Part shown: positions 21,195 to 37,700 of the stretch, in pieces | Layout: every line of letters begins with the position of its first letter | How positions within the stretch are numbered: the stretch's first letter is position 1 | Virus record (IMG/VR): IMGVR_UViG_3300045988_160113 | Location: 64,001-128,000 of that record | Source: a virus | Strand: one strand, 5' to 3' | DNA: 64,000 bases | Made by a program: the position numbers and the translations under genes | The notes under the pieces: generated by a model | What the model was told of the DNA's origin: nothing | What the model saw: the letters and a program-made list of their open reading frames with translations, nothing else | The model's database searches: none

Positions 21195-21207
21195 GGAGGA
21201 ATGAGTT

Positions 21208-21579: not shown

Positions 21580-21586
21580 AGGAGGA

Positions 21587-22111
21587 GTGAATATTGTGGC
21601 AAAATTAATCAATACTACTATCAAACTGAGAAGGGATAATGATTATAACTACAGTAAAGTAGCAGATAGTTTTATCCCCATGAAAGGCGAGCCAGTACTT
21701 GTAGATACTGAACAATATGGACTTAGATTCAAAATTGGTGACGGTGTCACTTCTTATGGTGCGCTTGCTTATGCTGATGATAATAATAATGTAGTTTTAC
21801 TTGGTTATTATCTGAATAGTAAATTTTATATTGATAGCACTTATACAGTTGAATTAGAAAAAAATGAAAATAAACTGTATATTGATAAGAATACTTATAC
21901 AGTATATATTTGGGATAAAGAGAATTATATTCCACTTAGTCCCGAAGCTACTGAAACTGTTGCGGGCATGATGAAACTTTATCAAACTTCTGGTAATAAT
22001 ACTGATGGTACTATGAGCCAGAAAGCTATTACTGAAGGCGTAAATGCTATCAAATTTGAATTAGATGGGCAAGATAAAGAGTGTCTTGTTCTTGACCTCC
22101 CTTGGGACTAA
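21587..22111 (+). CDS. fibre protein with N-terminal fibre module
   Basis: IKLRRDNDYNYSKVADSFIPMKGEPVLVDTEQYGLRFKIGDGVTSYGALAY; GTG start (21587 or 21596). Confidence 0.6.
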   Translation: MNIVAKLINTTIKLRRDNDYNYSKVADSFIPMKGEPVLVDTEQYGLRFKIGDGVTSYGALAYADDNNNVVLLGYYLNSKFYIDSTYTVELEKNENKLYIDKNTYTVYIWDKENYIPLSPEATETVAGMMKLYQTSGNNTDGTMSQKAITEGVNAIKFELDGQDKECLVLDLPWD

Positions 22112-22174
22112 GGGAGTAAATTGATACAAATATGGAAAACCACATTGTAAATAAAATTGAAAGGAGATTTTATT

Positions 22175-23845
22175 ATGGCTGATATTTCTAAAATCAAGCT
22201 TGCTAACGGCACAACTGTTACTTTGAAAGATGTTCAAGGTCGCACTGATATGACTACTCTTCTTGGTAAACATGCTCTTGAATCTCTTGGTGCTGCCGCT
22301 TGGAAGGCAGTTGCCACTGAAATTTCTGGTGAAGGCCTTGTTGATGCTTCTGTTGTTAAGGCCTATGTTGATTCTCAAGTTGGGCAAATTCATAGTTTTG
22401 ATGTTGTAATTGATGCCGATGGTGGAGCTACTGGTCCTTCTGTGGCTGCTTCTAAAGACACTATGTATAAGATTTACATGGTTGCTGATGCTCAAGCTTC
22501 TGCTGGTACTTATATTGAGTGGATTACTATTCGTTCTGGGGTTAAAGACCCTTATACCTATGCTTGGGAAAAAATTGGTTCCACCAAGACTGACCTTAGT
22601 GGTTATATTTCTAATACTATTACCATTGCTGGTATTCGACTTAACAGAGATATTTCTGTCTCTGACCTTCAGAAAGCTCTTACTCTTGGTTCTATGGCCT
22701 ATGCTGATAAAGCTTCTGGTTCTGGCTCCGTTGAGACTGTTGATAGTATTACCATGAAAGAAGTCACTGTTGCTGGTAATGCTGCTGTTACTTTCAAGGC
22801 TGCTGATGCTACTCTCACTAAGGCTAATTATACCCCTGCTGGTAAGGTTACTGGTTCTGCCATTTCTGGAGGTTCTATTGCTGTTACTTTGAAGGATTCT
22901 GCTACTAAGACTGCGGCCACTCTTAGCACCTCTGAGTTCACTCCTGCTGGTACTATCGCCGCCAAGGAGGGTGGTTCCTTCTCTGCTTTGAAGTCTGCCG
23001 CTTTCGGCGCTTCTGAAGATGGTGTTCAGATTGAGGGTACTGTCAGTGCTCCTGCAATTTCTCTTACCGCTGCTGACAAGACTTTTGCTACTGGTTTGAC
23101 TGGTGGTAGTAAGGCTTCCTTTACTGAGGGCGCTTTTACTCCTGCCGCAATTCAGGATGGTTTTTATACTGCTGGTAAGGCCGCTACTTGGACTGGTGCT
23201 GATTATACCGCTCCCAGTATGGGTGAGGCTTCCAAAGCAAAGTTTGCTTCTGAGGGTATTGTCGCCAGTCTTGATGCTGAAGATGCTGAATGCCTAGTAT
23301 TTACCACTGCTGGTACTGCTGATGCTGTTACTGCTCAGGGCGCCTTCAATGCTGGTAATGTTAACTTTGGTACTTTCAATGGTGGTTCTGCTACCGTTAT
23401 CGATACTACTAAGTTCTCTGGTGGTTCTAAGGATGCTGATACTTTCGTTGCTAATGAACTTCAGACTGCTACTACTGGCAAGGTAAGTGAAGTTTCTGCC
23501 GCCGCTCTTGCTAATGCTCCTGTATTCACCGGTGAGAAGTATGCTATTGCTACTACTACTGATACCGCTCTCAAGGATGTCGCCTTTACTGCTACCAATA
23601 GTGCTACTATTGTTGATAAAGTTGAGTATGTCAAGCCTGAAATTGATGCTGCTACCTTTACTGGTACTGCTGCTACTCTTGGCTTTACTGGTACTGAGGT
23701 TGAGAATGCTCTTGTTACTAGCGTTAGTTATGATAAGGCCGATACCATTGCCGCATTTAGTGTTGCTGTTACTCCTGAGACCGATATTATCAAGAAGACT
23801 GCTAAAACTGTTGAGGTTGAAGTTTCTCCTGTCGCTAAGCAGTAA
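22175..23845 (+). CDS. Ala/Thr/Gly-rich tail fibre protein
   Basis: MADISKIKLANGTTVTLKD N-terminus, a motif shared with the next two small ORFs; 556 aa, low complexity; ATG 22175 has an AAAGGAG RBS. Confidence 0.65.
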   Translation: MADISKIKLANGTTVTLKDVQGRTDMTTLLGKHALESLGAAAWKAVATEISGEGLVDASVVKAYVDSQVGQIHSFDVVIDADGGATGPSVAASKDTMYKIYMVADAQASAGTYIEWITIRSGVKDPYTYAWEKIGSTKTDLSGYISNTITIAGIRLNRDISVSDLQKALTLGSMAYADKASGSGSVETVDSITMKEVTVAGNAAVTFKAADATLTKANYTPAGKVTGSAISGGSIAVTLKDSATKTAATLSTSEFTPAGTIAAKEGGSFSALKSAAFGASEDGVQIEGTVSAPAISLTAADKTFATGLTGGSKASFTEGAFTPAAIQDGFYTAGKAATWTGADYTAPSMGEASKAKFASEGIVASLDAEDAECLVFTTAGTADAVTAQGAFNAGNVNFGTFNGGSATVIDTTKFSGGSKDADTFVANELQTATTGKVSEVSAAALANAPVFTGEKYAIATTTDTALKDVAFTATNSATIVDKVEYVKPEIDAATFTGTAATLGFTGTEVENALVTSVSYDKADTIAAFSVAVTPETDIIKKTAKTVEVEVSPVAKQ

Positions 23846-23848
23846 TAA

Positions 23849-23953
23849 ATGGCTGAAATTTCTAAAATCAAATTGCCAGACAATACCGAGTACAACCTAA
23901 AGGACGAAGAACTTCGTACTATGTTGGAAATTTTGTTGGGTAATAAAAATTGA
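23849..23953 (+). CDS. small ORF repeating the fibre N-terminal motif (34 aa)
   Basis: MAEISKIKLPDNTEYNLKD...; possibly a truncated fibre paralog. Confidence 0.35.
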   Translation: MAEISKIKLPDNTEYNLKDEELRTMLEILLGNKN

Positions 23954-24032
23954 TAGAGATATGGAACGGGGAGACTCCGGTTTCTCCGTTCCTACTTTAG
24001 AATAGAAACAAAGTGCTTCAAGGAGGGGTAAA

Positions 24033-24221
24033 ATGGCAAAGATAAAGACAATCAAACTTCCCAATGATACCTCTGCGCGCGAAGTATATGATGTTGGCGC
24101 AGTCAGATTTGATGAAAAAGGTAATCTGACAGAAGCACAAAAAACTATCGCGCGTGCTAATGTTGGCGTAGAAGAGTATACTGCCGACGAGATTGAGAAT
24201 ATTTGGAATAGTACAACGTAA
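24033..24221 (+). CDS. small fibre-motif protein
   Basis: MAKIKTIKLPNDTSAREVYD; AAGGAGGGG RBS. Confidence 0.5.
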   Translation: MAKIKTIKLPNDTSAREVYDVGAVRFDEKGNLTEAQKTIARANVGVEEYTADEIENIWNSTT

Positions 24222-24229
24222 GTAAATAG

Positions 24230-24251
24230 GGTGGGAGTAAATACTCCCACC
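24230..24251 (+). terminator. intrinsic terminator
   Basis: GGTGGGAGT-aaat-ACTCCCACC followed by a T-containing tract. Confidence 0.65.
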
Positions 24252-24262
24252 TTAGTAAAAAT

Positions 24263-24291
24263 TTGACGTGGAAAGTAATTTGTGGTATAAT
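24263..24291 (+). promoter_or_regulatory. promoter of the DGR operon (extended -10)
   Basis: TTGACG (24263-24268), 17 bp, TGgTATAAT (-10 at 24286-24291); followed by an untranslated leader of about 260 nt. Confidence 0.6.
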
Positions 24292-24555
24292 TATTATAGT
24301 GGATAAGAAATCTGCCTGGCTTGGAATGATAGTCAGTATAGCCCTTGAAAGTGATAGGGAGAAGAAGTTGACGGACGCTGAGCCAGTGGGTGAAGTGTCT
24401 GTTTTTTTATGTATATATTATATTCTGCGCACTTGTGAATTTTTTATAAAAGAAGATAGTGATTTTTATAGATTTTATACAAGGCCACGCGTAAGGATAG
24501 AAAGAATATAAATTGGCCTGCGCGAAAAGTGTAAGAGATAATAAAGGAGGTACAA

Positions 24556-24768
24556 ATGAGTAAGAATGTGAATGCTTGTAAAAGCGACAATACTGAAAAC
24601 TGGAATAAGGCAGTAAATTTTGTGCCTTCAAAGGGAGAAGTAATTATTTACTCTGATGTTGAACAGATGAAAGTCGGTGATGGAGTAAATAGTGTTGTCA
24701 ATTTGCCATTTAAGGACAGAGAATATGAGGATAAGGAAATTGAAGAGATTTATAATTCTGTGAGGTGA
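24556..24768 (+). CDS. small protein with fibre N-terminal module
   Basis: TENWNKAVNFVPSKGEVIIYSDVEQMKVGDGVNSVVNLPF; AAGGAGG RBS. Confidence 0.6.
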   Translation: MSKNVNACKSDNTENWNKAVNFVPSKGEVIIYSDVEQMKVGDGVNSVVNLPFKDREYEDKEIEEIYNSVR

Positions 24769-24772
24769 AAGT

Positions 24773-25522
24773 ATGGGAATTATTATGTTGAATAACAAGG
24801 TTCTGGTGAATCAGAATAAGATTGCGATGTATATACCTCCTTTTGAACCACCTGCTAAAGGTTCGATTGTAAAGATGAATTTGGATGGGACTGAAAGACA
24901 GTATAGAGTATTGAGTGTAAATGGAAACGTTTGTAAAGTATTAGGAATGTGGGATGACTTTGCAAGCAAATATAATGAAACAAGTACAACTACTACTTTC
25001 GGAAGCACTACTGCTCAGAAATACGAAGGTTCTACTTTAGATACCTATTTAAATACTACTTGGTATAATACATTAACTAGTGCTGCTAAGGCGGCTATTG
25101 TACCTGAGAATGTAGTACAGTATTGTTATAAATATTATGATGAACCAAATACTCCAAATACACCTACATATACATATCAATATCAGCATAACTGGTCTAA
25201 TTCAGATTATGAAAATGCCGATAATGTAGGCAATGTAACTGTTGGAGAACGTAACGTGTTTGCTTTAGATTTGAAGGATATTTTTGATTATATGGGAAAA
25301 GTGTGTATTACATCTGATGAACTAATGATTATGTTTTGGAATAGTACAACTAAAGTATCTAAATATCTATGGTTGCGGTCCTCTCTTGCCGACTATTCTT
25401 ACGGTGCGTGGATTGTGTCCGGTGACACTGGTAATTTGAGCTACACTGGTGTTGCTAATAGTTGTGTCGTGCGGCCCGCGCTTAATCTAGATATGTCCAA
25501 AATCCAGTACACCCTCGTGTGA
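24773..25522 (+). CDS. DGR target protein (receptor-binding candidate with C-terminal variable lectin-fold-like tail)
   Basis: C-terminal WLRSSLADYSYGAWIVSGDTGNLSYTGVANSCVVRPAL is encoded by the VR matching the TR. Confidence 0.85.
   Translation: MGIIMLNNKVLVNQNKIAMYIPPFEPPAKGSIVKMNLDGTERQYRVLSVNGNVCKVLGMWDDFASKYNETSTTTTFGSTTAQKYEGSTLDTYLNTTWYNTLTSAAKAAIVPENVVQYCYKYYDEPNTPNTPTYTYQYQHNWSNSDYENADNVGNVTVGERNVFALDLKDIFDYMGKVCITSDELMIMFWNSTTKVSKYLWLRSSLADYSYGAWIVSGDTGNLSYTGVANSCVVRPALNLDMSKIQYTLV
25373..25484 (+). repeat. DGR variable repeat (VR)
   Basis: Aligns without gaps to TR 26006-26117; all 19 mismatches lie at TR adenines; identical GC-rich 3' end GTCGTGCGGCCCGCG. Confidence 0.9.
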
Positions 25523-25529
25523 GCGGGTA

Positions 25530-25555
25530 GCTGGAGGCGCCTCAGCGCCGACAGC
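25530..25555 (+). promoter_or_regulatory. GC-rich hairpin downstream of VR (candidate DGR homing-enhancing structure)
   Basis: GCTG-ga-GGCGC-ctca-GCGCC-ga-CAGC inside an isolated GC-rich tract (25521-25566) in AT-rich DNA. Confidence 0.5.
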
Positions 25556-25618
25556 GTCCGCGGAGGAAAATATTTTCTAAAAATTATCAAATAACATTTT
25601 ATAAGGAGATTTTATTCA

Positions 25619-25993
25619 ATGGCTGAATTCAATCTTATCAATCGTGCAGAAAATATGGTTGACTATTTATTAACAATTACAGATAAAGCACCTAAAAAAC
25701 TTCGCTCAGATATTATCCCAGAACTTCGTAGAGCAAGTTTCAAATGTATTCAAGCAATCATTAAAGCTAATAATTGTCCACTTGACAAAACTCAACCTTA
25801 TTATACTGAACTTAGAAAACAATACCAACTTGAAACTAAAAGTTTTCTTCAAACAATTAGTGCTTATTCTGAGATTTGTATGAAGCATAACTACATTACT
25901 AAGAAACAATTCGATGTACTAAACGACCATATTTTCAAATGTCAAGATACCCTTATAAAATGGATGACTTCAGATGAAAATCGTTTGAAGTAA
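25619..25993 (+). CDS. avd: DGR accessory variability determinant (Avd-like four-helix-bundle protein)
   Basis: 124 aa basic helical protein located between the target gene and the TR, the canonical DGR position. Confidence 0.7.
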   Translation: MAEFNLINRAENMVDYLLTITDKAPKKLRSDIIPELRRASFKCIQAIIKANNCPLDKTQPYYTELRKQYQLETKSFLQTISAYSEICMKHNYITKKQFDVLNDHIFKCQDTLIKWMTSDENRLK

Positions 25994-26005
25994 CAGGTAT
26001 ATAAC

Positions 26006-26117
26006 TTGCGGTCCTCTAATGCCGACAATTCTAACAATGCGTGGAATGTGAACGGTAACAATGGTAATTTGAACAACAATGATGTTACTAATAGTAATGT
26101 CGTGCGGCCCGCGATTA
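26006..26117 (+). repeat. DGR template repeat (TR)
   Basis: Asn-codon rich (AAT/AAC) copy of the VR, 13 nt after the avd stop and upstream of the RT. Confidence 0.9.
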
Positions 26118-26260
26118 GGAAATAAAACAAAGATTTGTTTATAGTAACATGGGTTCTATACAATATCTTTTTTCTAAGGAGTTATATCCCTTCTGTAAAA
26201 AGAAAAATATTACTTGTGTATGATTATATCGTAACTATGTAATCTGCACTTCTTAGGAGG

Positions 26261-27193
26261 TTGCACAAGTTGTATAAAGAAATTTTGTGTAATTTTGATA
26301 ATATTTATAAAGCTTATAAAATAGCTCATAGAGGAAAAACAGATGATAAAGAAGTAATTGAGTTTGATAAAGATAAGATATATAATTTGAAAAAATTACA
26401 AGAAAAACTATTGAATAAACAATGGGATGAAATATTTACCTATTATAGGTTTGTAATTACCGACCCGAAGAAAAGAACTGTTGATGCTTTACATTTTGAA
26501 GGTAGAATAGTTCAACACGTTCTTTGTGATTTGATATTGAGACCTTACTTTGAAAGAAGATTGATAAAGGAAAATGCGGCTTGTAGAATAAATAAAGGAA
26601 CTGAGTACGCAGTGAATTTATTGAAAAAAGGTATTATTGAATATTATAAGAAAAATGATGACGGTTATGTTCTTCAAGCCGATGTTCATAAATATTTTCC
26701 AAGTATTGATAGAAAGAAATTGAAGGAGATAATTGATTATCCAAATAAAGAGATTTTAGAATTGATTCATTGGATTATTGATTGCGCGCCTGGCAATGGT
26801 ATTCCTATTGGTAATCAGTCTTCACAATGGTTTGCTTTATATTATTTGGATAAAATTGATAGAATTATCAAAGAGAAGTATAGATGTAAGATTTATGTCA
26901 GATATATGGATGATTTGATAGTTATAGATAAAAGTAAAGATAAACTAAAAAGAATTTTAGGTGATATTATACGAATCGGCCGAGAATTCGGATTGGAATT
27001 CAATGGAAAGACGCAAATATTCCCGCTAAGAAAAGGAATTTGTTTTTTGAGTTGGAAGTTCATTAGAAAAGAAAATATAATAAAACTGTTGAATCCAAGA
27101 AAGAAGTCAGGGAAAATAAAGAAGATAAAAGAAATTTTCAATGAAGGACCTGATAAGTTTGGGAGCGTTTTCAGTCTATGCGCGCCTACTTAA
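26261..27193 (+). CDS. DGR reverse transcriptase
   Basis: GIPIGNQSSQWFALYYL (DGR-type IGxxxSQ motif); YVRYMDDLIV (YxDD); non-ATG start (TTG 26261 or 26270) after GGAGG. Confidence 0.9.
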   Translation: MHKLYKEILCNFDNIYKAYKIAHRGKTDDKEVIEFDKDKIYNLKKLQEKLLNKQWDEIFTYYRFVITDPKKRTVDALHFEGRIVQHVLCDLILRPYFERRLIKENAACRINKGTEYAVNLLKKGIIEYYKKNDDGYVLQADVHKYFPSIDRKKLKEIIDYPNKEILELIHWIIDCAPGNGIPIGNQSSQWFALYYLDKIDRIIKEKYRCKIYVRYMDDLIVIDKSKDKLKRILGDIIRIGREFGLEFNGKTQIFPLRKGICFLSWKFIRKENIIKLLNPRKKSGKIKKIKEIFNEGPDKFGSVFSLCAPT

Positions 27194-27263
27194 GATTAGG
27201 AAACACTTACTATTTTAGAAAGAAAAGACTGATATATAATTATATATAAAGGAGGTCACCTAT

Positions 27264-28082
27264 ATGAAATATGTTGGCGAAAATGCCCTCAAAAAATGGA
27301 CTTCATTAGTCAAGTCCGACATAAAGAAAAAACTCGACAAAAACCAAGGCACTGCTAATTCTGGCAAAATTCTTGGTGTCAATGCGACTGGTGAAGTTGC
27401 ACCTACTGATACTGAGGTTGCTACTCTGGTGGACGTCCCCAATGGGATTGTAAAGGGAGATGGGAGTACACTGAGTGCGGCAGTAGCAGGGACGGACTAT
27501 ATGGCTCCAGTTACCGGTGGTTCTTCCGGTCAAGTGCTGACGAAAACCGCCGATGGGCAGGAGTGGGCAGACGCGGCGGGGGGCGATGTGTTCTGGATTC
27601 ACGCGACGTTGAGCGGGGCTACCGTTACCGCAGACAAAACCCCCAGCGAAGTCAAAGAAGCAATGGTAGCTGGGAAATTATGCCTTTTGGATATTGGTTT
27701 TCCATATCCAACATTGGTTGGAGGCGATGTGCGGAATGTGTCGGGTATTCCTCAAAGCATAATATTTACAGCAGTTAAAGAGAAAAGTAAGGATTCAGAA
27801 GCAGGAACAGTCTACTCAGTGACATGCAGTTTTACAGTCGATGCATGGCAGGCTCTCACAAAAACCATTATCCCAAGAATACCTATACCGAATAGCTCCA
27901 ACGAGGGCAAATTTGTAAAATCGATCTATGATGATGGTGACGAGGCGTATTATGCACGCTGGCAACCCATCGCCCCCTCCGACATCGGCGCTATCGCAAG
28001 CGGCAACATCGTCAAGCAGACGCTTGTGAACGTTGAGACCACGCCGACCGAGAACTACGCCATCAACTGGCTGTTCGGCTAA
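27264..28082 (+). CDS. tail fibre protein, compositionally chimeric
   Basis: AT-rich N-terminus; GSTLSAAVAGTDYMAPV fibre motif; switches to GC-rich coding from about 27430. Confidence 0.65.
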   Translation: MKYVGENALKKWTSLVKSDIKKKLDKNQGTANSGKILGVNATGEVAPTDTEVATLVDVPNGIVKGDGSTLSAAVAGTDYMAPVTGGSSGQVLTKTADGQEWADAAGGDVFWIHATLSGATVTADKTPSEVKEAMVAGKLCLLDIGFPYPTLVGGDVRNVSGIPQSIIFTAVKEKSKDSEAGTVYSVTCSFTVDAWQALTKTIIPRIPIPNSSNEGKFVKSIYDDGDEAYYARWQPIAPSDIGAIASGNIVKQTLVNVETTPTENYAINWLFG

Positions 28083-28092
28083 GGAGGCGCGC

Positions 28093-29223
28093 ATGGCTAC
28101 ATTTACTGTAGAGATAACGCCAGATTCTAGCAACGGTACTATCGCCCACGCAGTCGGAAAGTTTTCCGGAGGGTCAAGCAGCTATAAAGGTCGGCGACGC
28201 ATGAACGTTACCGTCAGCGGCGTCGGGACATTTTCTGCGTTATCGCCGGAGACAAGCGGAGGCGAAAACACTTTTTCTCTCGACATCACGGGGCTGACGC
28301 CGGGGACAACGTACAACTGGAGCGCGTCACTCTACTACAAACATACGTCCGGGGGTTGGGTGACAGCAGGATCGCAGTACGATAAATCCGGAAGCTTTAC
28401 GACGAAAAGTAAAACCCCTACATTACCAAAAACGCTCGTCAACGGCACTGCTTACGACGTTAAGGGCGGGAAGTGCCTCGTCAACGGCACGGTGTACAAT
28501 ATCCTCAAGGGCAGGACGCTTATCGGCGGGACGGGGTATGATATTGCGCTGTCGAGCGCGGGGACAAAGATTGAGACGCTGAACGTGGGACAATCAGTAT
28601 ATGCAAATGTTGGTGGCGTGCGCAAGGAATTCATCGTTGTCCATCAGGGCAAGCCAAGTTCTTTGTACGATGATTCCTGCAATGGCACTTGGCTGTTGAT
28701 GAAGGATATCTACGAGAATAGGCAGTGGAACAGTTCCGATTCCAACGTATATGAAACCAGCACGGTCAACACTTACCTTAACGGGCCGTTTCTTGGGCTG
28801 TTTGACTCTAACATTCAAGGGATTATCAAACAGGTCAAGATACCGTACCGCAAAGGTGGCGGCAGCGGCACTGACCAGTCCGGCGCAAATGGCCTGTCCG
28901 CGAAGATATTTTTGTTGTCTGGTTACGAAGTAGGCTGGACGACCAGCAACCACGAGTTGTTCCCACAGGATGGCGCGAAGCTGTCCTACTTTGAGTCTGG
29001 GACCGGCACGTCCGCCAACAAGAAGCGCATTGCGTACCTGGACGGCTCGGTCGCCATCTGGTGGCTCCGCTCCCCGAACATCGGCTACACCGACGGGGTA
29101 TGGCGCATCAGCGCCGGTGGCAGCTACGACTACAACAACGCATCCCGCTCGTACGGCATCCGCCCCTGCATCATTCTCCCGTCCACTACCCTCGTGGATG
29201 ACGAATTCAATCTTACCACTTAA
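28093..29223 (+). CDS. GC-rich fibre/receptor-binding protein with VR-like C-terminal tail
   Basis: ATG 28093 after AAGGAGG; C-terminal IWWLRSPNIGYTDGVWRISAGGSYDYNNASRSYGIRPCIIL and internal TVNTYLNGPF parallel the DGR target protein. Confidence 0.65.
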   Translation: MATFTVEITPDSSNGTIAHAVGKFSGGSSSYKGRRRMNVTVSGVGTFSALSPETSGGENTFSLDITGLTPGTTYNWSASLYYKHTSGGWVTAGSQYDKSGSFTTKSKTPTLPKTLVNGTAYDVKGGKCLVNGTVYNILKGRTLIGGTGYDIALSSAGTKIETLNVGQSVYANVGGVRKEFIVVHQGKPSSLYDDSCNGTWLLMKDIYENRQWNSSDSNVYETSTVNTYLNGPFLGLFDSNIQGIIKQVKIPYRKGGGSGTDQSGANGLSAKIFLLSGYEVGWTTSNHELFPQDGAKLSYFESGTGTSANKKRIAYLDGSVAIWWLRSPNIGYTDGVWRISAGGSYDYNNASRSYGIRPCIILPSTTLVDDEFNLTT

Positions 29224-29235
29224 AGGAGTGAAACT

Positions 29236-30036
29236 ATGTCAACTTACATCAAAGTCAACAACACCGAATACCCCGCGACCATCACGGGCGAGCACAAAGA
29301 CCGCACGTGGGGTGAGCGCGAGGTCAAGAACATCCGCCTGACGATGACCGCCACCGAGGCGGCGGCGCTGCTACCCGACAACACGCCGTGGAGCATCGTA
29401 CAGCGCGACACCGTACCTAAGTACGATGAGGACGGCAAGCCCACGGGCGAGACCGAGGAGGTCGTCAACGAGTGGGACAACAGCGCGTACAGCCTGAGCG
29501 GGGCGATCACCGACCACCGCGACGGCACGGTCACGGTCAAGATGGGAAAGCCCACGGAGACCGAGAGCGCCAAAGCGACCGTCACCGCCCTTGCTGGCGA
29601 GCCGGTCACATACGCCCGCGCGGTGGAGCTACGCCCCATTATCGAGCAGACAGCGGTCAGCCTGAGCGACGGCGAGGCGGCAAGCGTGCCGGAACTCATC
29701 ACAGCATGGGCGTACCCCGTTGATTACGCTGAGGGCGACCGCAGGAGCTACGGCGGTAAGGTGCACAAGTGCCGTCAGGCACATACCTCGCAGGCCGACT
29801 GGACGCCGGACAAGACGCCCGCGTTGTGGGCGGTCATCGACGCCGAGCACGCGGGCACGCAGGCAGACCCCATCCCGGCAGCGCGCGGCATGGAGTACGA
29901 GTACGGCAAGTACTACCTCGACGGCGAGGACGGCAAGGTGTACCTCTGCGAGCGCACGGGCGAGCAGGCGGGCGGCAAGATCACGCTGCAATACCTGCCG
30001 CACGAGCTGGTGGGCAACTATTTCAAGGCGGCCTAA
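29236..30036 (+). CDS. GC-rich structural protein with CBM5/12-like carbohydrate-binding C-terminus
   Basis: YGGKVHKCRQAHTSQADWTPDKTPALWAVI resembles the aromatic CBM5/12 motif; AAGGAG RBS. Confidence 0.5.
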   Translation: MSTYIKVNNTEYPATITGEHKDRTWGEREVKNIRLTMTATEAAALLPDNTPWSIVQRDTVPKYDEDGKPTGETEEVVNEWDNSAYSLSGAITDHRDGTVTVKMGKPTETESAKATVTALAGEPVTYARAVELRPIIEQTAVSLSDGEAASVPELITAWAYPVDYAEGDRRSYGGKVHKCRQAHTSQADWTPDKTPALWAVIDAEHAGTQADPIPAARGMEYEYGKYYLDGEDGKVYLCERTGEQAGGKITLQYLPHELVGNYFKAA

Positions 30037-30167
30037 GGTCGCAGAAAGGGAGCGAACCAATGGGAGATTTGGCAAGGGTCGTATCGGTGTGCTCGGAGAT
30101 CACGGTTATCCTCAGTGCGTAAAGTAAGAGTCCAACAAAATTTCAACAAAAATTTTTCTCTCGAAAT

Positions 30168-30196
30168 TTGACTTTTCTTCAAACTTCAACTATAAT
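30168..30196 (+). promoter_or_regulatory. promoter cassette
   Basis: TTGACT (30168-30173), 17 bp, TATAAT (30191-30196). Confidence 0.65.
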
Positions 30197-30292
30197 ATAA
30201 TTAGAGAGTGGGAAGAGAACACTCTCCTACCTTATTTACTTATTTTTCTTTCTCTTCCCACTCTACTACATTATACTATGGAGGAATTTACC

Positions 30293-30646
30293 ATGTCTGA
30301 ATCCGCTCATCATGCTCCTGCGCCCGTTCCGCAACCGATTCCAGTTTATAAAACCGTCGATATTTCTACAGTCAAACGACAAGGTGATACTTGGTTACTA
30401 AACTCTCAACTCACCTATACCGATTCTCAAAACTTCTCATCTGTCCATTTTATCTCAAATGGTCAATCATTTACCGCTATTTCTCATTACCCAAAAGACA
30501 ATTCCGAATGTCTTTATTATGACCTCATCAAAGTCAATAACGGCTCTCCATTTTGGCTTGATGATAACTATCGAGTAATATCACTTACTCATAAACCAGA
30601 TAAGAAATTACTCGCCTGGCTTACTGCTAATGGCGTAAAGATATAG
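30293..30646 (+). CDS. hypothetical protein
   Basis: ATG 30293 (MSESAHH) lies 8 nt after GGAGG; the track start at 30278 contains that RBS. Confidence 0.55.
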   Translation: MSESAHHAPAPVPQPIPVYKTVDISTVKRQGDTWLLNSQLTYTDSQNFSSVHFISNGQSFTAISHYPKDNSECLYYDLIKVNNGSPFWLDDNYRVISLTHKPDKKLLAWLTANGVKI

Positions 30647-30653
30647 ATTTTTA

Positions 30654-30680
30654 GGAGAGCGGAAGCTCTTCTTTTTTTAT
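30654..30680 (+). terminator. intrinsic terminator
   Basis: AGAGC-ggaa-GCTCT followed by TTCTTTTTTT. Confidence 0.6.
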
Positions 30681-30692
30681 AGGAGGAATATA

Positions 30693-31484
30693 ATGACAGA
30701 ACAAAACCTGCGTAGGCTAGTAGTAGACACATTCTGTTCCTATAATGGTGCCAAACAGAATTCTACTAAACACAAAAACCTTATTGACACATACAACACA
30801 ATTATCCCTCTTCCTCGTGGAGTGAAGATGACTTACTCCATGTCTTGGTGTGCGGCAACAGTAAGCGCGATTTCACAGAAGCTTGGACTGACAGATATTC
30901 TTCTTCCTGAGTGTTCCTGCTCCAAAATGATTGAAGCGTATCAAAAAATTGGCCGCTGGGAAGAGCGTGATAACTATGTTCCTCAGATTGGCGACTTAGT
31001 TATGTATGACTGGCAAGATGGAAGTGATTATGTTAGTGTAGATAATACCGGTGCACCCGACCATGTTGGTATGGTGGTTGATGTGAATAAGGCTTCGAAA
31101 ATGATGAGAATTATCGAAGGGAATAAAGGAACTCCATCAACTTGTGGATATCGATCACTACAAATCAATGGACGATTTATTAGAGGATTCTGTTTACCAG
31201 ATTATGCAAAGGCTGCTAAGACATACAAGACAAGTTCCACTACAAAAATTGAATATTGTAGCGTAAACCTACCAGTTCTCACTCAAGGCGCGACTGGACA
31301 AACTGTAGAGACACTACAAGTTATACTGCGCGCGCTGGGATATAAGATTGATTTAGATGGTTCTTTCGGTCCTGCGACGGCGAATGCACTCAGTCAGTTC
31401 CAGAAAGGGAGTGGCCTAGCGGTTGATAAGTCCTGTGGACCTCTTACATGGACCGCTTTGATTACAGGAGGAGAATTGAAATGA
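30693..31484 (+). CDS. endolysin: CHAP/NlpC-P60-like hydrolase plus PG_binding_1 domain
   Basis: Candidate catalytic Cys in MSWCAATV and His in PDHVGMVV; C-terminal LRALGYKIDLDGSFGPATANALSQFQ. Confidence 0.8.
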   Translation: MTEQNLRRLVVDTFCSYNGAKQNSTKHKNLIDTYNTIIPLPRGVKMTYSMSWCAATVSAISQKLGLTDILLPECSCSKMIEAYQKIGRWEERDNYVPQIGDLVMYDWQDGSDYVSVDNTGAPDHVGMVVDVNKASKMMRIIEGNKGTPSTCGYRSLQINGRFIRGFCLPDYAKAAKTYKTSSTTKIEYCSVNLPVLTQGATGQTVETLQVILRALGYKIDLDGSFGPATANALSQFQKGSGLAVDKSCGPLTWTALITGGELK

Positions 31485-32467
31485 AATACTATGTATCTAA
31501 TGGTATCAAAATTATTGAATGCGCGCCCAGTGAATTCAAAGTGGTCATGGTGAATCAACACAAGAAAAATGTGCGCAAGTCCACTTTTGTAAATGCGAAT
31601 TTCTTTGCGGGTGGGCAGAAACTCAACAATGAAGTATTCACGTTACCAGTAAATCACCTTATTTGTGATTATGAAGCAAGTGGAAACTCGGAGCGGATTC
31701 GTAATGAGCAGCGTGGCACTTTCAAAGGTAATAAATATTACTATGATTCTTACTCTTACGGCGCACCCACTGACCAATTCTATCATAAAACCTTGACTGT
31801 CTTGGCTATCAAGAACAAAAAGCCAAGCATCTTTGATATGGCTGTATTGGATAAGTCATATGAATATCTTGTTGCTGGTATTCCAGTAATGAAGAATGGC
31901 AAGGATGTAAAGTGGAAGACTTATGTTTCTAAGCAAGGTTGGACTGGTGGTGAGCTATATGGAACCTATCACATTTTTGCTGGTTTGAAGAATGGAACTG
32001 ACACTATTTACCTAATGAGTTGGAAAACTACTTCTTCAAATTTGATTTATAGTGGTGAAGCATTTAGAAGGTTCTCAGCGATGGGTTTTAGGGATGTCAT
32101 CAAGCTTGATGGCGGTGGCAGTGAGATTATGAGGTATAACAATGTTACCAAGCACGCGACTGCTGAAAATCGGCAAATCAGCGCCATTATTGAGGTAGTT
32201 GGTAAAGAAGTTGCTACAACTCCAAATCGTCCACAGAGCAAGGCTAATCCATACGCAGTCCCCACCAAGGCTCTCAAACGTGGCTCGACTGGTAATGGAG
32301 TTCGCTGGATGCAGTTCCAACTAAATAAAGCTGGATTTACTTGTTCTATTGATGGCTCTTTCGGCCCAGCAACTGAGAAGGCACTCAAGTCCTATCAATC
32401 TGCGCGCAGTCTCGAAGTTGATGGAAGCTGTGGTCCTGCTACTCGCGCGGCATTGAAGAAGGAATAA
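31481..32467 (+). CDS. second cell-wall-binding lysin-like protein (phosphodiester-glycosidase-like plus PG_binding_1)
   Basis: VIKLDGGGSEIM motif; C-terminal LNKAGFTCSIDGSFGPATEKALKSYQ; ATG 31481 has a GGAGGAG RBS and overlaps the upstream stop. Confidence 0.6.
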   Translation: MKYYVSNGIKIIECAPSEFKVVMVNQHKKNVRKSTFVNANFFAGGQKLNNEVFTLPVNHLICDYEASGNSERIRNEQRGTFKGNKYYYDSYSYGAPTDQFYHKTLTVLAIKNKKPSIFDMAVLDKSYEYLVAGIPVMKNGKDVKWKTYVSKQGWTGGELYGTYHIFAGLKNGTDTIYLMSWKTTSSNLIYSGEAFRRFSAMGFRDVIKLDGGGSEIMRYNNVTKHATAENRQISAIIEVVGKEVATTPNRPQSKANPYAVPTKALKRGSTGNGVRWMQFQLNKAGFTCSIDGSFGPATEKALKSYQSARSLEVDGSCGPATRAALKKE

Positions 32468-32468
32468 T

Positions 32469-32497
32469 TTGACTTTTGAATTCTTTTATGATATAAT
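32469..32497 (+). promoter_or_regulatory. promoter cassette (extended -10)
   Basis: TTGACT (32469-32474), 17 bp, TGaTATAAT (32492-32497). Confidence 0.65.
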
Positions 32498-32542
32498 ATA
32501 TATAAAGGTGGATGACACCAATAAATATGAGAGGATTATAAA

Positions 32543-32761
32543 ATGGTAAAGCTAAGCGTAACAGAAAAGTATCGTGCAGAGACTCGTGAGGAAGCAGAAG
32601 ATTTCATTCGTGCACAGCGTGAGAATGGAGCTAAGGAAGGGTATGATATTACTAAAGCTGAGTATACCCATAAAGACAAGAAAAAGGGTGGGGAGATTAT
32701 TGATTCGTGTGAAGTAGTCACCATCACTAAGGTCTATTGTGGTATGTGGGACATGGAGTAA
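32543..32761 (+). CDS. hypothetical protein
   Basis: 72 aa, charged. Confidence 0.55.
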   Translation: MVKLSVTEKYRAETREEAEDFIRAQRENGAKEGYDITKAEYTHKDKKKGGEIIDSCEVVTITKVYCGMWDME

Positions 32762-32763
32762 CT

Positions 32764-32931
32764 ATGGAAAAAACCTATACTTGCTACACTTGCCTCAATT
32801 TTGATGAACTTTGCTCCAAACTCGAAAATGGTGAGCGGCCTCCAAAAATTTGTAAAAAGTGCGCATGGCATGAGCAGGGAGATGAACTCCCTCTCAAGAA
32901 GCGCCCTAATTATATTTCAATGAATCTATAA
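32764..32931 (+). CDS. small Cys-containing (zinc-ribbon-like) protein
   Basis: CYTC...CKKC pairs; ATG 32764. Confidence 0.5.
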   Translation: MEKTYTCYTCLNFDELCSKLENGERPPKICKKCAWHEQGDELPLKKRPNYISMNL

Positions 32932-32943
32932 GGAGAATCAACT

Positions 32944-33357
32944 ATGGAAATTTTTCAACAGTGTCTAACCGAACTACTCCGTGTAGTAGTCCTTGTTATC
33001 ATCGCCGGTTTTGGTGTTCTTGCCCGTATGTATCTTGTTCCTCTACTCAAGTCTTGGGTTGAAAAGGCTAAGTCTGCCGCAGATAAAGCTGGTATTGACC
33101 TAACTGCCGAACAGGTTGAACAGGCAAAGAAGATTATTGCTGCGATGGTTGCTTCGGCATATCGTTTAAAGCTCGGTGGTAAGATTGAAGATGCTAAGGC
33201 TTATGTCAATGAGCTGGCAAAGACTGAACTTGCTAAACTTGGCATTGAACTGAGTGATGAAATGATTGATGAGTTTCGTCGTGCGGCGCTTGGTGAGCTT
33301 GAGCGCACTATGGCCGAGTGGAAGACTCTTACTGAAATTGAGGGAGAGACAGAGTAA
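32944..33357 (+). CDS. holin-like membrane protein
   Basis: N-terminal TM segment VVVLVIIAGFGVLARMYLV then a long hydrophilic helical tail; adjacent to the lysins. Confidence 0.45.
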   Translation: MEIFQQCLTELLRVVVLVIIAGFGVLARMYLVPLLKSWVEKAKSAADKAGIDLTAEQVEQAKKIIAAMVASAYRLKLGGKIEDAKAYVNELAKTELAKLGIELSDEMIDEFRRAALGELERTMAEWKTLTEIEGETE

Positions 33358-33376
33358 TCTGTCTCTCTTTTTTTTG
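33345..33376 (+). terminator. intrinsic terminator
   Basis: AGAGACAG-agtaat-CTGTCTCT followed by a T9 tract. Confidence 0.75.
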
Positions 33377-33380
33377 AAAT

Positions 33381-33409
33381 TTGATTTTTGAAGAAAAATT
33401 TTGTATAAT
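33381..33409 (+). promoter_or_regulatory. promoter cassette
   Basis: TTGATT, 17 bp, TGTATAAT; leader ATTATAGAAAGTGAGGAAAG. Confidence 0.65.
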
Positions 33410-33433
33410 GATTATAGAAAGTGAGGAAAGATT

Positions 33434-33658
33434 ATGAAAGGTATTGAGGAAATTTTATACCATTTCAAGGCTTGGTTTAGAAGTCTTGGCTTATCAGTAT
33501 ATAATGTAAAGTTATGGCGGGAAGAAGAAACTAAAAATGTATATGTAGGAAGTCAGTTTTTCTTTAGATATAAAGCAGCAAAATTTTGGAAAGATAGCTG
33601 GGATGAAGATAAAGAAATTACTGCTACTATCACTAAAGAAACCGTATTCTTATTTTGA
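33434..33658 (+). CDS. hypothetical protein
   Basis: 74 aa behind a promoter cassette. Confidence 0.55.
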   Translation: MKGIEEILYHFKAWFRSLGLSVYNVKLWREEETKNVYVGSQFFFRYKAAKFWKDSWDEDKEITATITKETVFLF

Positions 33659-33660
33659 TT

Positions 33661-33828
33661 ATGAAAGTAGAAAAAGGAACTATTGCTAAACTTCGTCGTT
33701 GCGCGCGGATTGAACCATTGTTTCCAGAGTTGAAATGGTGGCAGAAAATTTATTTGAGAATCTATGAAAGGGTACGGGGTGTATTATGGAAGATAAGAAG
33801 GAAGATAGGAATTCGACCTCGAAGATGA
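33661..33828 (+). CDS. hypothetical small basic protein (55 aa)
   Basis: ATG ORF below the track cutoff, overlaps the next small ORF. Confidence 0.3.
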   Translation: MKVEKGTIAKLRRCARIEPLFPELKWWQKIYLRIYERVRGVLWKIRRKIGIRPRR

Positions 33829-33935
33829 CTCCTGAACAGTTAGAAAAATGGCTTGCTCTGCGTAAGAAGTGTCATGTGCATAAGAGCAAGAAAGACTATA
33901 CTCGAAAGGAGAAGCATAAGAAACAGTATGAATAA
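33786..33935 (+). CDS. hypothetical small basic protein (49 aa)
   Basis: ATG ORF, Lys-rich. Confidence 0.3.
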   Translation: MEDKKEDRNSTSKMTPEQLEKWLALRKKCHVHKSKKDYTRKEKHKKQYE

Positions 33936-34137
33936 AAATATTATATTTGGATTCAAACTTGCTTTGGCAGTATTTTGCTCGGTATTTAGCTTGATTTTAC
34001 CTTATGTATTTCTTTTTTATATTGTTACTCATCCTGTTTGGTGGATTTGGCTGTTAGGATTTCCTACTCTTGCCGCGCTAATTGCTCTTGAAGTATGTAT
34101 TTGTGAATATATATGGGAGGAATGGATTGATGATTGA
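33928..34137 (+). CDS. small membrane protein
   Basis: MNKNIIFGFKLALAVFCSVFSLILPYVFLFYIV...; two TM segments. Confidence 0.5.
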   Translation: MNKNIIFGFKLALAVFCSVFSLILPYVFLFYIVTHPVWWIWLLGFPTLAALIALEVCICEYIWEEWIDD

Positions 34138-34726
34138 TAATTTTGAGAATATAAAGAATATTCCAGTTACAAATATGACTATTGGAGATATTTTGAAATA
34201 TTTTGAAGTTGTTACTGAACGTGAACACAATAGTGAAGAAGAAGTAAAGAGAAGTATGTCTGAGGTTGCTAATCGTTTTATGGTAGAAGCGATGTATAAA
34301 TATTATAATCCTAATGAATATCAAAGCGAGACATCAAAGGTTTCTATGCGCAAGGATGGCGAAAACTGGGAAAAAGGGGGAATAATTAGTGGTTATTTTT
34401 ATCCACCCAATTCACGAGCGGCTATTGTCAGAGAATTGACAAATAAATTCAAAGATGATTTGATTCGAGGGAAAATTTTATTTTCAGAAGAGAATAAAAA
34501 TTTTTTCTTCAAAACCGCAGACCATCCTACCTGTAAACTTACTCTTAGCATCGAAGATGGTAATTTAGTTATTACTTATTATATTGGTGATACCGTTTAT
34601 ACCAAGAAAATTTTACCTGACTCTTCCGATTTTGTAAATAAAAGTGACGAATTTTGGAAAAAGTATGGGGAAATTATTATATCTTCGTCCAATGAGTTGG
34701 TTGCGCAAATCAATGAAGGTCATTGA
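34130..34726 (+). CDS. hypothetical protein (paralog pair A)
   Basis: IPVTNMTIGDILKYFEVVTEREHNSEEEVKRSMSEVANRFMVEAMYK aligns with the next gene. Confidence 0.55.
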   Translation: MIDNFENIKNIPVTNMTIGDILKYFEVVTEREHNSEEEVKRSMSEVANRFMVEAMYKYYNPNEYQSETSKVSMRKDGENWEKGGIISGYFYPPNSRAAIVRELTNKFKDDLIRGKILFSEENKNFFFKTADHPTCKLTLSIEDGNLVITYYIGDTVYTKKILPDSSDFVNKSDEFWKKYGEIIISSSNELVAQINEGH

Positions 34727-34747
34727 CTAGGAGAAATATCCTAAAAT

Positions 34748-34776
34748 TTGATTTAGTAAGAAATATTTGCTATAAT
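34748..34776 (+). promoter_or_regulatory. promoter cassette
   Basis: TTGATT, 17 bp, TGCTATAAT. Confidence 0.65.
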
Positions 34777-34830
34777 ATTTATAGAAAATTGAGACAAATT
34801 ATATTTGAAAGGAGAAGTGTAAGAAAGATT

Positions 34831-35511
34831 ATGCTGAATAATGAAGATTATTCAAAGGTGTTGAAAAAGCCTATCAAAGACATGACTATTGGTGATGTAG
34901 TTGAATACTTTGATATCATCTGCGCGCGGAAACATGGCGGTGATGAAGATGTAAAGCGCACTGCTTCTGAATTGAAGGCGCGTTTTATTATGGAAGCTCT
35001 CTATAAGAATGATGAGTTTTTTTCGAAAGAGCGGCAAGGAAATGTAATCAACGATTGGTATAATAAGACTTGTAAAGACGGTCATCTAATATTAGTACCT
35101 TCTTCTTATGAAATTGCCCAAGCAAGAAACTATCTTGATTCTGATTGTAGGCTGCTGTCTCCTCAACTGTTGCGAGACCGACAGAGTGCGAAGGAACTAA
35201 AGAATTTGGTTAGGGAATTTTGTGAAGATAGAGATGCTGGTAGACTTATTCACCCTAATAGTGTCTGTGCCAATCCCGTTTTTGATAGAGTAAATGGGAA
35301 AACTCGACTTATAATTTCCAAGATTGCTAATAATCAACTTTTCGTTCGAGTAATTATCAATGGTTCAGCAAGATATTTCTATGTCAATGTAAGGTTCAAT
35401 AGAACACCATTTGCTTATAATTGGTGGAAGATGTATAGTCGTCGCATTACAAAGAAACTTGGGAAAATTATCGACAAACTTGAGAAAGGAGATTATAATG
35501 AACAATTTTGA
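34831..35511 (+). CDS. hypothetical protein (paralog pair B)
   Basis: PIKDMTIGDVVEYFDIICARKHGGDEDVKRTASELKARFIMEALYK. Confidence 0.55.
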   Translation: MLNNEDYSKVLKKPIKDMTIGDVVEYFDIICARKHGGDEDVKRTASELKARFIMEALYKNDEFFSKERQGNVINDWYNKTCKDGHLILVPSSYEIAQARNYLDSDCRLLSPQLLRDRQSAKELKNLVREFCEDRDAGRLIHPNSVCANPVFDRVNGKTRLIISKIANNQLFVRVIINGSARYFYVNVRFNRTPFAYNWWKMYSRRITKKLGKIIDKLEKGDYNEQF

Positions 35512-36148
35512 TGTAACCATTCTTACCCCACAGGGAGATAACTATGTAAAATTATATCCTCTTATTAATGGAGCAATACTTAAAACCAGTCAGTCTAAAC
35601 CTGGCAGTTTCAAAAATATTGATATTGAACTAACCAATGAAGGCCTTGAGCAATTGCGCGTATGGCTTGATTGTTACTTCAAAGAACATGAAGAAGACGA
35701 AAAGAAACAAAAGCTAATTTCTAATCGTATGGCCACATATGAAGTATATATTGAAGGATTAGCAGATTTCAAAATTGTCAACTCCGAGATTCCTAAAAAT
35801 ACCATTGAGTATTTCAATCACCTAAAAAATTATCTTGATTTTTCAGTTCTCACACCACAATTATATGCTTCTCTTCGTCATACAGTTCTTATGGGATTTT
35901 ACAAAGTAAGTGAAAAAGCAACTCATAAGCTCACTTTAGAATTTTTGATGAGTGGCAATTCAGTAAATACAATTTTGTATAAAATTGAAAGTTGCGATGA
36001 CCATATTGGGAGATATGAATTTACAGACGAAGGACTCAAAATTATCCCATTGGGCACAGCTGGGCTAGCAGAAGACCTAAACTTCAAACTTTGCGCGAAA
36101 GCTATCAAAGATATTTATAATGAATTTATGGAGACTGATTATGAATAA
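35498..36148 (+). CDS. hypothetical protein
   Basis: ATG 35498 after AAGGAG. Confidence 0.55.
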   Translation: MNNFDVTILTPQGDNYVKLYPLINGAILKTSQSKPGSFKNIDIELTNEGLEQLRVWLDCYFKEHEEDEKKQKLISNRMATYEVYIEGLADFKIVNSEIPKNTIEYFNHLKNYLDFSVLTPQLYASLRHTVLMGFYKVSEKATHKLTLEFLMSGNSVNTILYKIESCDDHIGRYEFTDEGLKIIPLGTAGLAEDLNFKLCAKAIKDIYNEFMETDYE

Positions 36149-36279: not shown

Positions 36280-36356
36280 GGCACTGTAACCCAATTGGCA
36301 GAGGTAAATCACTCAAAATGATTGAAGTATGAATTCGAATTTCATCAGTGCCACCA
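36280..36356 (+). tRNA. tRNA with anticodon CAA (Leu by code) but short variable arm
   Basis: GGCACTG/CAGTGCC acceptor, A73, encoded CCA; AATCA-CTCAAAA-TGATT anticodon arm; ATGAA-TTCGAAT-TTCAT T arm; 3-bp D stem with 11-nt loop; 5-nt variable region. Confidence 0.65.
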
Positions 36357-36452
36357 TAAAGAATTTGGGATAGAGCAGAAAAGCGCACCTGCTTGATAAG
36401 AGTAACTCCCTCTTCCCTTATTCTTATCTTATGGAGTTAGTAAGGAGTAAAA

Positions 36453-37697: not shown

Positions 37698-37700
37698 AAT

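Follow-up and report, generated by a model that had tools for sequence, protein, structure and literature searches.

We examined a GC-rich (guanine plus cytosine) island that lies beside a diversity-generating retroelement (DGR) in a gut phage, within a 64,000-nucleotide (nt) stretch of DNA comprising positions 64,001 to 128,000 of IMG/VR record IMGVR_UViG_3300045988_160113. The whole of this stretch is called the window, and coordinates refer to it unless a locus is named. The window covers 64 kb of a ~135-kb genome (~135.7 kb) of about 36% GC, which carries topoisomerase II, ligase and 8 tRNA genes. The island starts within a fibre gene (27264-28082) and runs through a gene with a DUF6273 domain and a gene with a carbohydrate-binding module (CBM). 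GC3 denotes the GC content of third codon positions, and the features of the locus are as follows.

27264-27572, + strand: N-terminal domain of the resident fibre (codons 1-104), presumed virion anchor, including a GC-rich patch at 27430-27572
27573-27992, + strand: divergent middle domain of the fibre (codons 105-243; GC 0.48)
27993-28082, + strand: fibre C-terminus encoded by the cassette (last 29 codons and stop), the left edge of the exchanged block
27993-30054: proposed exchanged cassette (2,060 bp), comprising the fibre end, the DUF6273 gene, the CBM gene and the ribosome-binding site of the donors' next gene
28093-29223, + strand: gene for a predicted adhesin (Pfam DUF6273, PF19789, E = 3.6e-36; phrog_10993, E = 1.3e-55)
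29056-29180, + strand: putative fossil variable region, within the DUF6273 domain of the adhesin
29236-30036, + strand: CBM gene (CBM_5_12, E = 2.2e-12; amino acids (aa) 157-198; 47.2 bits against a cut-off of 26.2)
30037-30135, + strand: right junction, with a donor-type ribosome-binding site at 30040-30054 followed by a lineage-specific remnant
30168-30196, + strand: promoter-like site TTGACT-17-TATAAT (11/12 consensus matches), preceding a 117-aa gene and the lysis genes

Base composition was profiled in 500-nt windows, and those outside 27400-30150 served as background (mean 0.361 GC, standard deviation 0.048, maximum 0.498). Windows with starts at 27251-29751 had 0.50-0.676 GC (z = 2.9 to 6.6), in keeping with the abrupt island reported in a preliminary description of this DNA, and the three sub-zones drawn there measured 0.597 (27430-27650), 0.41 (27651-27940) and 0.585 (27993-30054). 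Codon usage agreed: GC3 within the fibre gene was 0.345 for codons 1-55, 0.53 for codons 56-104, 0.45 for codons 105-243 and 0.90 for codons 244-272, rising to 0.668 in the DUF6273 gene and 0.869 in the CBM gene, against 0.21-0.40 in ten backbone genes. Because third codon positions shift most, amino-acid composition was ruled out as the source of the shift. The many long spurious open reading frames (ORFs) that had been noticed on both strands of the island are indeed present, and the AT-rich promoter cassette said to resume at 30168 corresponds to the promoter-like site listed above. No strong promoter-like or terminator-like site was located on the + strand within 27264-30150, where the genes abut and have ribosome-binding sites only; the island was thus rejected as a moron (a self-contained transcription unit), being without a flanking promoter and terminator.

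The predicted adhesin consists of a beta-sandwich (~aa 1-105), a conserved beta-hairpin linker (~aa 106-152) and a C-terminal DUF6273 lectin-like domain (aa 197-364), the last scoring 125.1 bits against a gathering cut-off of 23.5 and covering the whole profile (1-172). An AlphaFold2 (AF2) model (pLDDT 76.5) showed an N-terminal beta-sandwich, the hairpin linker and an alpha/beta C-terminal domain. The fold search used the whole model, so that immunoglobulin (Ig)-like matches to the N-terminal sandwich dominated, and the only informative match was the best PDB hit, 9qa6, an IgA peptidase from T. ramosa annotated with DUF6273 in its N-terminal domain. Genes of this type are modular, joining an N-terminal FN3-like or second DUF6273 head through the conserved linker to a variable C-terminal head. 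DUF6273 domains are C-lectin-like, serve as DGR targets in Faecalibacterium and in gut phages, and hold a hypermutated hairpin (PMC10743442, PMC11792537); they are thought to bind receptors, on bacteria or on host cells (PMC10743442, PMC11792537, bioRxiv 10.1101/2024.10.15.618418). The third protein of the cassette, described earlier as CBM5/12-like at its C-terminus, contains a bona fide CBM5/12 module, which exceeds the Pfam gathering threshold and matches chitin-binding domains by PDB sequence search (4ny2, E = 5.7e-10; 1ed7, E = 1.4e-7); its ligand is predicted only. Searches of PDB sequences, PHROGs and NCBIfam with the fibre gene gave no match.

Homology to the island was present in every GC-rich locus that was fetched (loci are designated by L numbers), in each case beginning at 27992/27993 and stopping at 30039-30054, at the start codon of the next gene of those phages. 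Overall identity of the cassette to L006-L013 (0.53-0.60 GC) was 81-87%. Nucleotide identity to the GC-rich loci was 89-91% for the fibre C-terminus (27993-28082). Between the adhesin gene and its 377-aa counterpart in L006-L013 it was 85-91%, and a run of 124 nt matches exactly; by part, the N-terminal third of the adhesin reached 91% and its DUF6273 domain 85%, and the CBM gene was 86-87% identical to that of L007. To those of L034-L037 (GC 0.53-0.55; L034 bears an integrase) the CBM gene was 92% identical, and stretches of 227 nt (29245-29471) and 105 nt match without a difference. Relatives of the CBM gene number more than 5,000, most of them on 40-48-kb contigs. A survey set was drawn from IMG/VR as the loci encoding the 29-residue fibre-end motif, which is 86-100% identical among them. 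All 79 such loci had 0.52-0.63 GC; the hairpin-linker motif was present in 78 of them, the N-terminal part of the CBM protein in 74 and DUF6273 in 67, and none of the 79 had a reverse transcriptase within 8 kb.

The cassette was found on at least three backbones. The first comprises siphovirus-like contigs (~42-44 kb where complete), in which it follows the tape-measure and distal-tail genes and precedes holin-like and Amidase_2 genes; the second, phages of ~43 kb that have a P22-type portal and an LPD3/PBECR5 protein of 2,400-2,560 aa; and the third, the AT-rich lineage of the window. The 377-aa DUF6273 gene (10001-11134) is ~100% identical at the nucleotide level in L006, which has the P22 portal and LPD3, and in the siphovirus-like L007, L011 and L012, and the adjacent CBM genes of the same four loci are just 73-81% identical; single genes of the cassette thus move independently of one another, and have done so very recently. 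The nearest relatives in named genomes lie in prophage regions of Oscillibacter sp. UBA8280 (70%) and Clostridiales bacterium CCNA10 (63%), over residues 156-376. A genome scan for the donor host returned matches of 45-70% identity in Oscillibacter, Oscillospiraceae, Clostridiales and a Collinsella metagenome-assembled genome (probably mis-binned), and Faecalibacterium phages gave weaker DNA matches to the cassette. The sole deposited match to the donor backbone was a faecal "Bacteriophage sp." record. The island, held from the start to be foreign by composition, has relatives with a matching native composition in 52-63% GC gut phages, and, its junctions being verified in independent assemblies, it qualifies as a horizontally exchanged module native to them.

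For the backbone, a megablast of 21000-36000 against GenBank phages matched one record, in the island only, so the backbone is without a close deposited relative. AT-rich relatives sought in IMG/VR through the reverse transcriptase were not found there; three (L014, L015 and L017) were reached instead through fibre homologues. The fibre's N-terminal domain (27264-27572) is 87-88% identical to theirs in nucleotides and 88-94% in amino acids, and is common to many proteins of 163-476 aa with differing middles (75-96% aa identity). The first GC-rich patch (27430-27572), which had been counted as part of the import, shares this conservation in all three AT-rich relatives and is therefore resident in the lineage and not a recent import. 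With an N-terminus that is resident and a C-terminus that is encoded by the cassette, the in-frame fusion to a resident fibre gene that had been proposed holds. The best protein relatives of the middle domain (P0131, P0134, P0137 and P0176) are only 54-57% identical. Around the interval that runs from the fibre N-terminus to the 117-aa gene (hereafter the slot), the flanks of the three relatives are 87-97% identical to the window, and DNA 3' of the promoter-like site is 93-97% identical in all three; the slot itself is filled differently in each.

L015 (125-kb contig): a 288-aa fibre, three small genes and a 165-aa C-terminal CBM remnant (GC3 0.69)
L017 (69.6-kb contig): a fibre of 348 aa with the 29-residue motif at its end, an adhesin of 486 aa with two DUF6273 domains, a CBM gene of 266 aa (GC3 0.77) and a further DUF6273 gene
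L014 (121.7-kb contig): AT-rich DUF6273 genes, a glycosyltransferase and a 44-residue N-terminal CBM remnant

The glycosyltransferase of L014 (12247-13434 of that locus) belongs to family 2 and lies between DUF6273 genes; fibre loci do not usually carry such cargo. All four AT-rich genomes retain part of the CBM gene in the slot. At the right junction, sequence past the donor ribosome-binding site is shared only with the AT-rich L015 and L017, and partly with L014. It holds a 20-codon ORF (30061-30123; MGDLARVVSVCSEITVILSA), of which diverged versions occur in L015 and L017, and which may be a remnant or a small gene. Since the right junction is common to the window, L015 and L017, it was made once, in a common ancestor, and the exact patches of 124-227 nt show that the present alleles of the slot are recent. 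Slot and right junction are thus ancestral to the lineage, with only the resident alleles recent. The proposal of a recently acquired module stands for the alleles and fails for the slot and its right border; likewise, carriage of the same island by related AT-rich phages, which the preliminary description had named as grounds for rejecting recent import, is partly observed, in that all three retain CBM pieces and L015 and L017 share the junction.

Upstream of the fibre gene the window carries a complete DGR, whose parts are the target gene with its variable region (VR1), an Avd-like gene, the template repeat (TR) and the reverse transcriptase.

24773-25522, + strand: DGR target gene (DUF6273, E = 1.9e-13), with the active VR1 at 25373-25484
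25619-25993, + strand: Avd-like gene (bAvd, E = 1.9e-4)
26006-26117, + strand: TR
26261-27193, + strand: reverse transcriptase (RVT_1, E = 5.8e-12)

VR1 is 83% identical to the local TR, with 19/19 mismatches at TR adenines, and it varies among relatives at TR-adenine sites. L014 and L017 lack the Avd-TR-reverse transcriptase block (window 25523-27263) beside their homologue of the DGR target (9246-9986 in L014 and 9237-9986 in L017, corresponding to window 24773-25522), and only 15 nt separate that homologue from the start of the fibre gene; the equivalents of VR1 in these two loci differ from the TR of the window and of L015 mostly at TR-adenine positions, and the retroelement was either recently lost from these phages or lies elsewhere in their genomes.

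The adhesin of the island had been assigned to the same fold family as this target on the strength of a VR-like peptide near its C-terminus. The peptide is present, to within 3 nt of where it had been placed, and Pfam DUF6273 is found in both genes. The adhesin has a lectin-like domain with the VR at its C-terminal end, as expected of a DGR target, and 29056-29180 aligns with the real variable regions (VRs) of phage Lelie, L018 and L021. Compared with the TR of L021, an Oscillibacter-type prophage DGR template, the stretch differs at 19/38 A sites and at 5/79 non-A sites (Fisher p = 1.5e-7), which gives 94% identity at non-adenine sites; compared with the TR of L018 it differs at 18/37 A sites and 6/80 non-A sites. 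The genuine TR/VR pair of L021 differs at 17/38 A sites and 1/79 non-A sites, and TR and VR of phage Lelie show 17 differences, all at TR adenines. Both L018 and L021 have the order TR, reverse transcriptase, DUF6273 target, with mismatches at TR adenines of 12/14 and 17/19, respectively, and over the 200 nt upstream of the VR the adhesin gene is 80-93% identical to the L018 target.

Signs of present diversification were sought in the window and among homologues. A scan for a cognate TR of 29040-29200 (ungapped 60-nt windows, both strands, >=65% identity, that is, 35% mismatches allowed) found none in the 64-kb window, ~71 kb of the genome lying outside it. The local TR (26006-26117) and its 3' end did not align with 29040-29200 either, which agrees with the earlier remark that the VR-like stretch does not match the local TR at the DNA level. 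Across 20 aligned homologues the VR-like peptide is near-invariant (two differ from the window at two positions, and two from the shared 377-aa sequence at one), and near-identical copies are not hypervariable. The stretch is little changed between the window and the GC-rich 377-aa copies, the genes themselves being ~9-15% diverged, and no TR or reverse transcriptase lies within 8-10 kb of the GC-rich copies of the cassette. In the wider family the most variable positions are VR positions, as expected for descendants of differently written VRs. Judged from these alignments, 29056-29180 appears to be a fossil DGR VR that is no longer diversified. Its near identity between the window and the GC-rich copies places the freezing before their split, so that it did not occur on arrival in the window phage. 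The suggestion of a former DGR target that had lost its own TR is borne out as to the former VR, with no TR in the window, and amended in that the loss was not on arrival.

Taken together, we consider it very probable that the island is an exchangeable fibre-tip adhesin cassette of GC-rich gut-phage origin, set in an ancestral swap slot and carrying a frozen DGR VR. Several observations weigh against this. The fibre middle (27573-27992) has no nucleotide match in any fetched locus and is thus untraced in origin. The CBM genes of the window, L017, L007 and L029 are all 84-90% identical to one another, and a neighbour-joining tree of the gene, whose nearest copies all fall in this range, is unresolved; one ancestral acquisition followed by conversion and several acquisitions cannot be separated cleanly. 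The nearest cultured relatives of the endolysin are Enterocloster, Roseburia and Dorea (Lachnospiraceae) phages (45-49% identity), and so lend no support to an Oscillospiraceae host common to both phage types. The DUF6273 family goes under "Hoc-like head decoration" in PHROGs, and the cassette comes after the capsid gene in P22-portal phages, so that a role in head fibres is possible. Finally, a cognate TR could fall in the ~71 kb beyond the scan.

The cassette is envisaged to turn over as follows. The resident phage would keep the N-terminal fibre domain (27264-27572), presumably anchoring the fibre to the particle, and everything from 27573 to the promoter at 30168 would be the swap slot. 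During co-infection, or infection of lysogens, alleles would be replaced piecemeal as homologous recombination acts on short stretches of conservation (the 29-codon fibre end, the linker and the CBM patches), and such swaps may re-target recognition of surface glycans by the particle. The VR of the lectin head would owe its latest rewriting to a TR of a type that remains active in Oscillibacter-type prophages, and is presumably beyond the reach of the phage's own DGR. Virion location, binding function, recombination mechanism and a shared host are all inferred.

The module had been traced to a phage of a much higher-GC host. Donor phages of 52-63% GC bear out the first half of this; a higher-GC host is unproven, and a shared host is a live alternative, according to which the AT-rich phage has high-GC Oscillospiraceae hosts in common with the temperate donors and repeatedly captures their adhesin alleles from resident prophages, its backbone being the compositional outlier. 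We regard this as possible, if somewhat on the improbable side. The exact 227-nt and 124-nt matches with GC-rich phages, including the integrase-bearing L034, imply that both phage types recently met in one cell, and GC-rich cassette DNA is present, as different alleles, in three of the four AT-rich genomes. In the window the cassette has a GC3 as high as in the donor phages or higher, which indicates no amelioration. Phages that are more AT-rich than their host tend to carry tRNAs reading A/U-ending codons; several of the eight tRNAs here do so (among them Leu-CAA, Gly-TCC, Lys-TTT twice and Ile-TAT), and the set fits a host richer in GC than the phage. Neither CRISPR spacers nor prophage relatives lend support, however; the endolysin points to Lachnospiraceae phages as noted; topoisomerase II is <=34% identical to anything deposited; and the donor hosts are themselves deduced from Oscillibacter and Clostridiales prophage proteins of 63-70% identity. 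A broader proposal, that the AT-rich lineage shares cells with temperate Oscillospiraceae-type phages of 52-63% GC and continually harvests their adhesins by means of a universal "plug" (the fibre end of 29 residues together with the hairpin linker) that fits siphovirus-like, P22-portal and large-phage backbones alike, seems to us rather unlikely. If it were true, the island would mark directly the host of an uncultured phage ~20 GC points from that host, and specificities written by DGRs would pass as fixed alleles to phages without the cognate retroelement.

The position of the cassette bears on where its products act. In the window it closes a 14-kb run of fibre-like genes with Mtd_N-type domains, and both here and in the siphovirus-like phages it directly precedes the lysis genes; for these reasons the three products are read as a fibre-tip adhesin complex, with location and ligand inferred. 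Alternatively, they might decorate the capsid, as head fibres or as mucus or glycan adhesins, and not form a tail receptor-binding protein, in which case their exchange would leave host range unchanged. Besides the PHROGs label, which the FP_Brigit and FP_Toutatis records carry likewise, and the placement directly after the major capsid gene in P22-portal phages, the literature allows for binding of gut or immune cells (PMC10743442). The Hoc-like label stems from an Ig-domain architecture that is absent from the adhesin, however, and the siphovirus-like backbones place the cassette after the tape-measure and distal-tail genes; together with the fibre-like run ahead of it in the window, this makes capsid decoration distinctly unlikely.

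The chimeric fibre protein is encoded on five contigs. Over the 20.7 kb compared, a 135,452-bp MEGAHIT contig (ERZ19693459), present in two samples, shows 100% identity to the window. A 93,106-bp SPAdes contig (ERZ1755967) is 100% identical across the 11.8 kb compared and ends at 29021, and a second ERZ1755967 contig (42,744 bp), of similar coverage, picks up at 28967 and matches the window without a difference through the right junction; the 55 nt at 28967-29021 are common to both contigs, which together sum to the ~135.7-kb genome. The break falls in the part best conserved with DUF6273 genes of other phages (93% identical to L018), and for that reason it is likely to be a graph branch from a co-resident cassette-bearing phage.

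The same break, just upstream of 29056-29180, could be taken to mean that the second DUF6273 gene is an active DGR target after all, diversified either by the local reverse transcriptase from a TR that lies beyond the window or through a further DGR in the genome. The stretch does show the sequence signature of a VR, some gut phages are known to have two DUF6273 targets for a single DGR, with 17 kb between the TR and one of the targets (PMC10743442; bioRxiv 10.1101/2024.10.15.618418), and the portion of the genome outside the window scanned could supply a template. Against this stand the lack of any match to 29040-29200 in the window at the threshold given, the failure of the local TR to align, the near-invariant peptide, the identity across the stretch of two assemblies from different samples, and the ready explanation of the break by sequence shared with co-resident phages, and we hold an active target to be highly improbable. 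That the island is an assembly chimera, joining an AT-rich phage to a co-occurring GC-rich one, as the preliminary description feared and as the abrupt composition switches, the abundance of the cassette in gut samples and the SPAdes contig terminating within the island might suggest, is refuted in practice, since MEGAHIT and SPAdes contigs from different samples are 100% identical to the window over both junctions, and since an artefact cannot account for a right junction that recurs at 79-84% identity in the diverged L015 and L017, the latter with a diverged whole cassette.

Other features of the window are listed below.

8415-9509, - strand: GIY-YIG homing-endonuclease-like ORF (phrog_314 and phrog_5123 matches), amid replication genes (topoisomerase II subunits, helicase, ligase)
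16771-19344: 857-aa fibre-like gene in which several stretches of 77-124 nt recur internally as direct repeats (73-89% identity), as with 17829-17951 and 18018-18140
36280-39799 and 59567-59637: eight tRNA genes (Leu-CAA, Trp-CCA, Gly-TCC, Lys-TTT x2, Asn-GTT, Phe-GAA, Ile-TAT)

Counterparts of the 857-aa gene vary in length, being at least 910 aa in L014, 1,073 aa in L015 and 940 aa in L017.

With donors identified, junctions resolved to the base and an assembly artefact excluded, the locus documents a flow of adhesin modules between gut phages more than 20 GC points and threefold in genome size apart. The cassette may offer a clue to host linkage for an uncultured large phage, and contigs of this kind would be mis-handled by composition-based host prediction and by chimera filters. 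A binding site shaped by a DGR can circulate as a frozen allele, so that a VR-like sequence beside a DGR is not necessarily the target of that DGR. Tail-fibre mosaicism and orphaned DGR targets are known kinds, no new mechanism is called for, and current concepts of phage mosaicism and DGR biology are unchanged; the value of the island is as a teaching case, in the size of its GC gap, its base-level junctions and its traceable fossil VR.

Exchange of fibre and receptor-binding modules between unrelated phages is classic mosaicism, as in the fibre genes of P2, Mu, lambda and the T-even phages. The island resembles it in that the N-terminal anchor is conserved and the distal part exchangeable, that the in-frame junctions fall in short stretches of conservation, and that one distal module is found across morphotypes and genome sizes. 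It differs in the width of the GC gap (GC3 ~0.25 in the backbone versus 0.67-0.87 in the island), in being a three-gene cassette that begins inside a fibre gene, and in piecemeal exchange with exact patches of 100-230 nt. The Mtd protein of Bordetella phage BPP-1 is a receptor-binding tip of C-type-lectin fold, whose C-terminal VR is served by a DGR. The adhesin is like it in its lectin-fold tip and C-terminal VR, and Mtd_N-type domains occur upstream in the window locus; unlike in Mtd the VR is inactive, and the likeness rests on fold and placement of the VR and not on sequence.

Closer at hand are the 'tgt2'/Mtd-like DUF6273 targets of DGRs (PMC10743442, PMC11792537), with which the adhesin shares a VR at the C-terminal end of DUF6273 and the 3' end of the gene, and a stretch that aligns with VRs or TRs of phage Lelie, L018 and L021; it departs from them in having no cognate TR in the window, no hypervariability, and an N-terminus of beta-sandwich and hairpin linker. 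Tentaclins, in which an N-terminal C-lectin domain is followed by Ig-like domains (PMC10743442), belong to the same lectin-like family and gut-phage setting; membership was rejected since the lectin domain of the adhesin is C-terminal with nothing after it, aa 1-105 are modelled as a beta-sandwich, and there is neither an Ig-like chain nor a C-terminal anchor Ig motif. Some phages retain targets after loss of their DGR, and in the Toutatisvirus hotspot both DUF6273 targets remain where the DGR has gone (bioRxiv 10.1101/2024.10.15.618418), much as the adhesin remains without its own. Unlike that case, the orphan described here adjoins a different, active DGR with a DUF6273 target of its own, and its ancestry is traceable to the TR type of another phage lineage.

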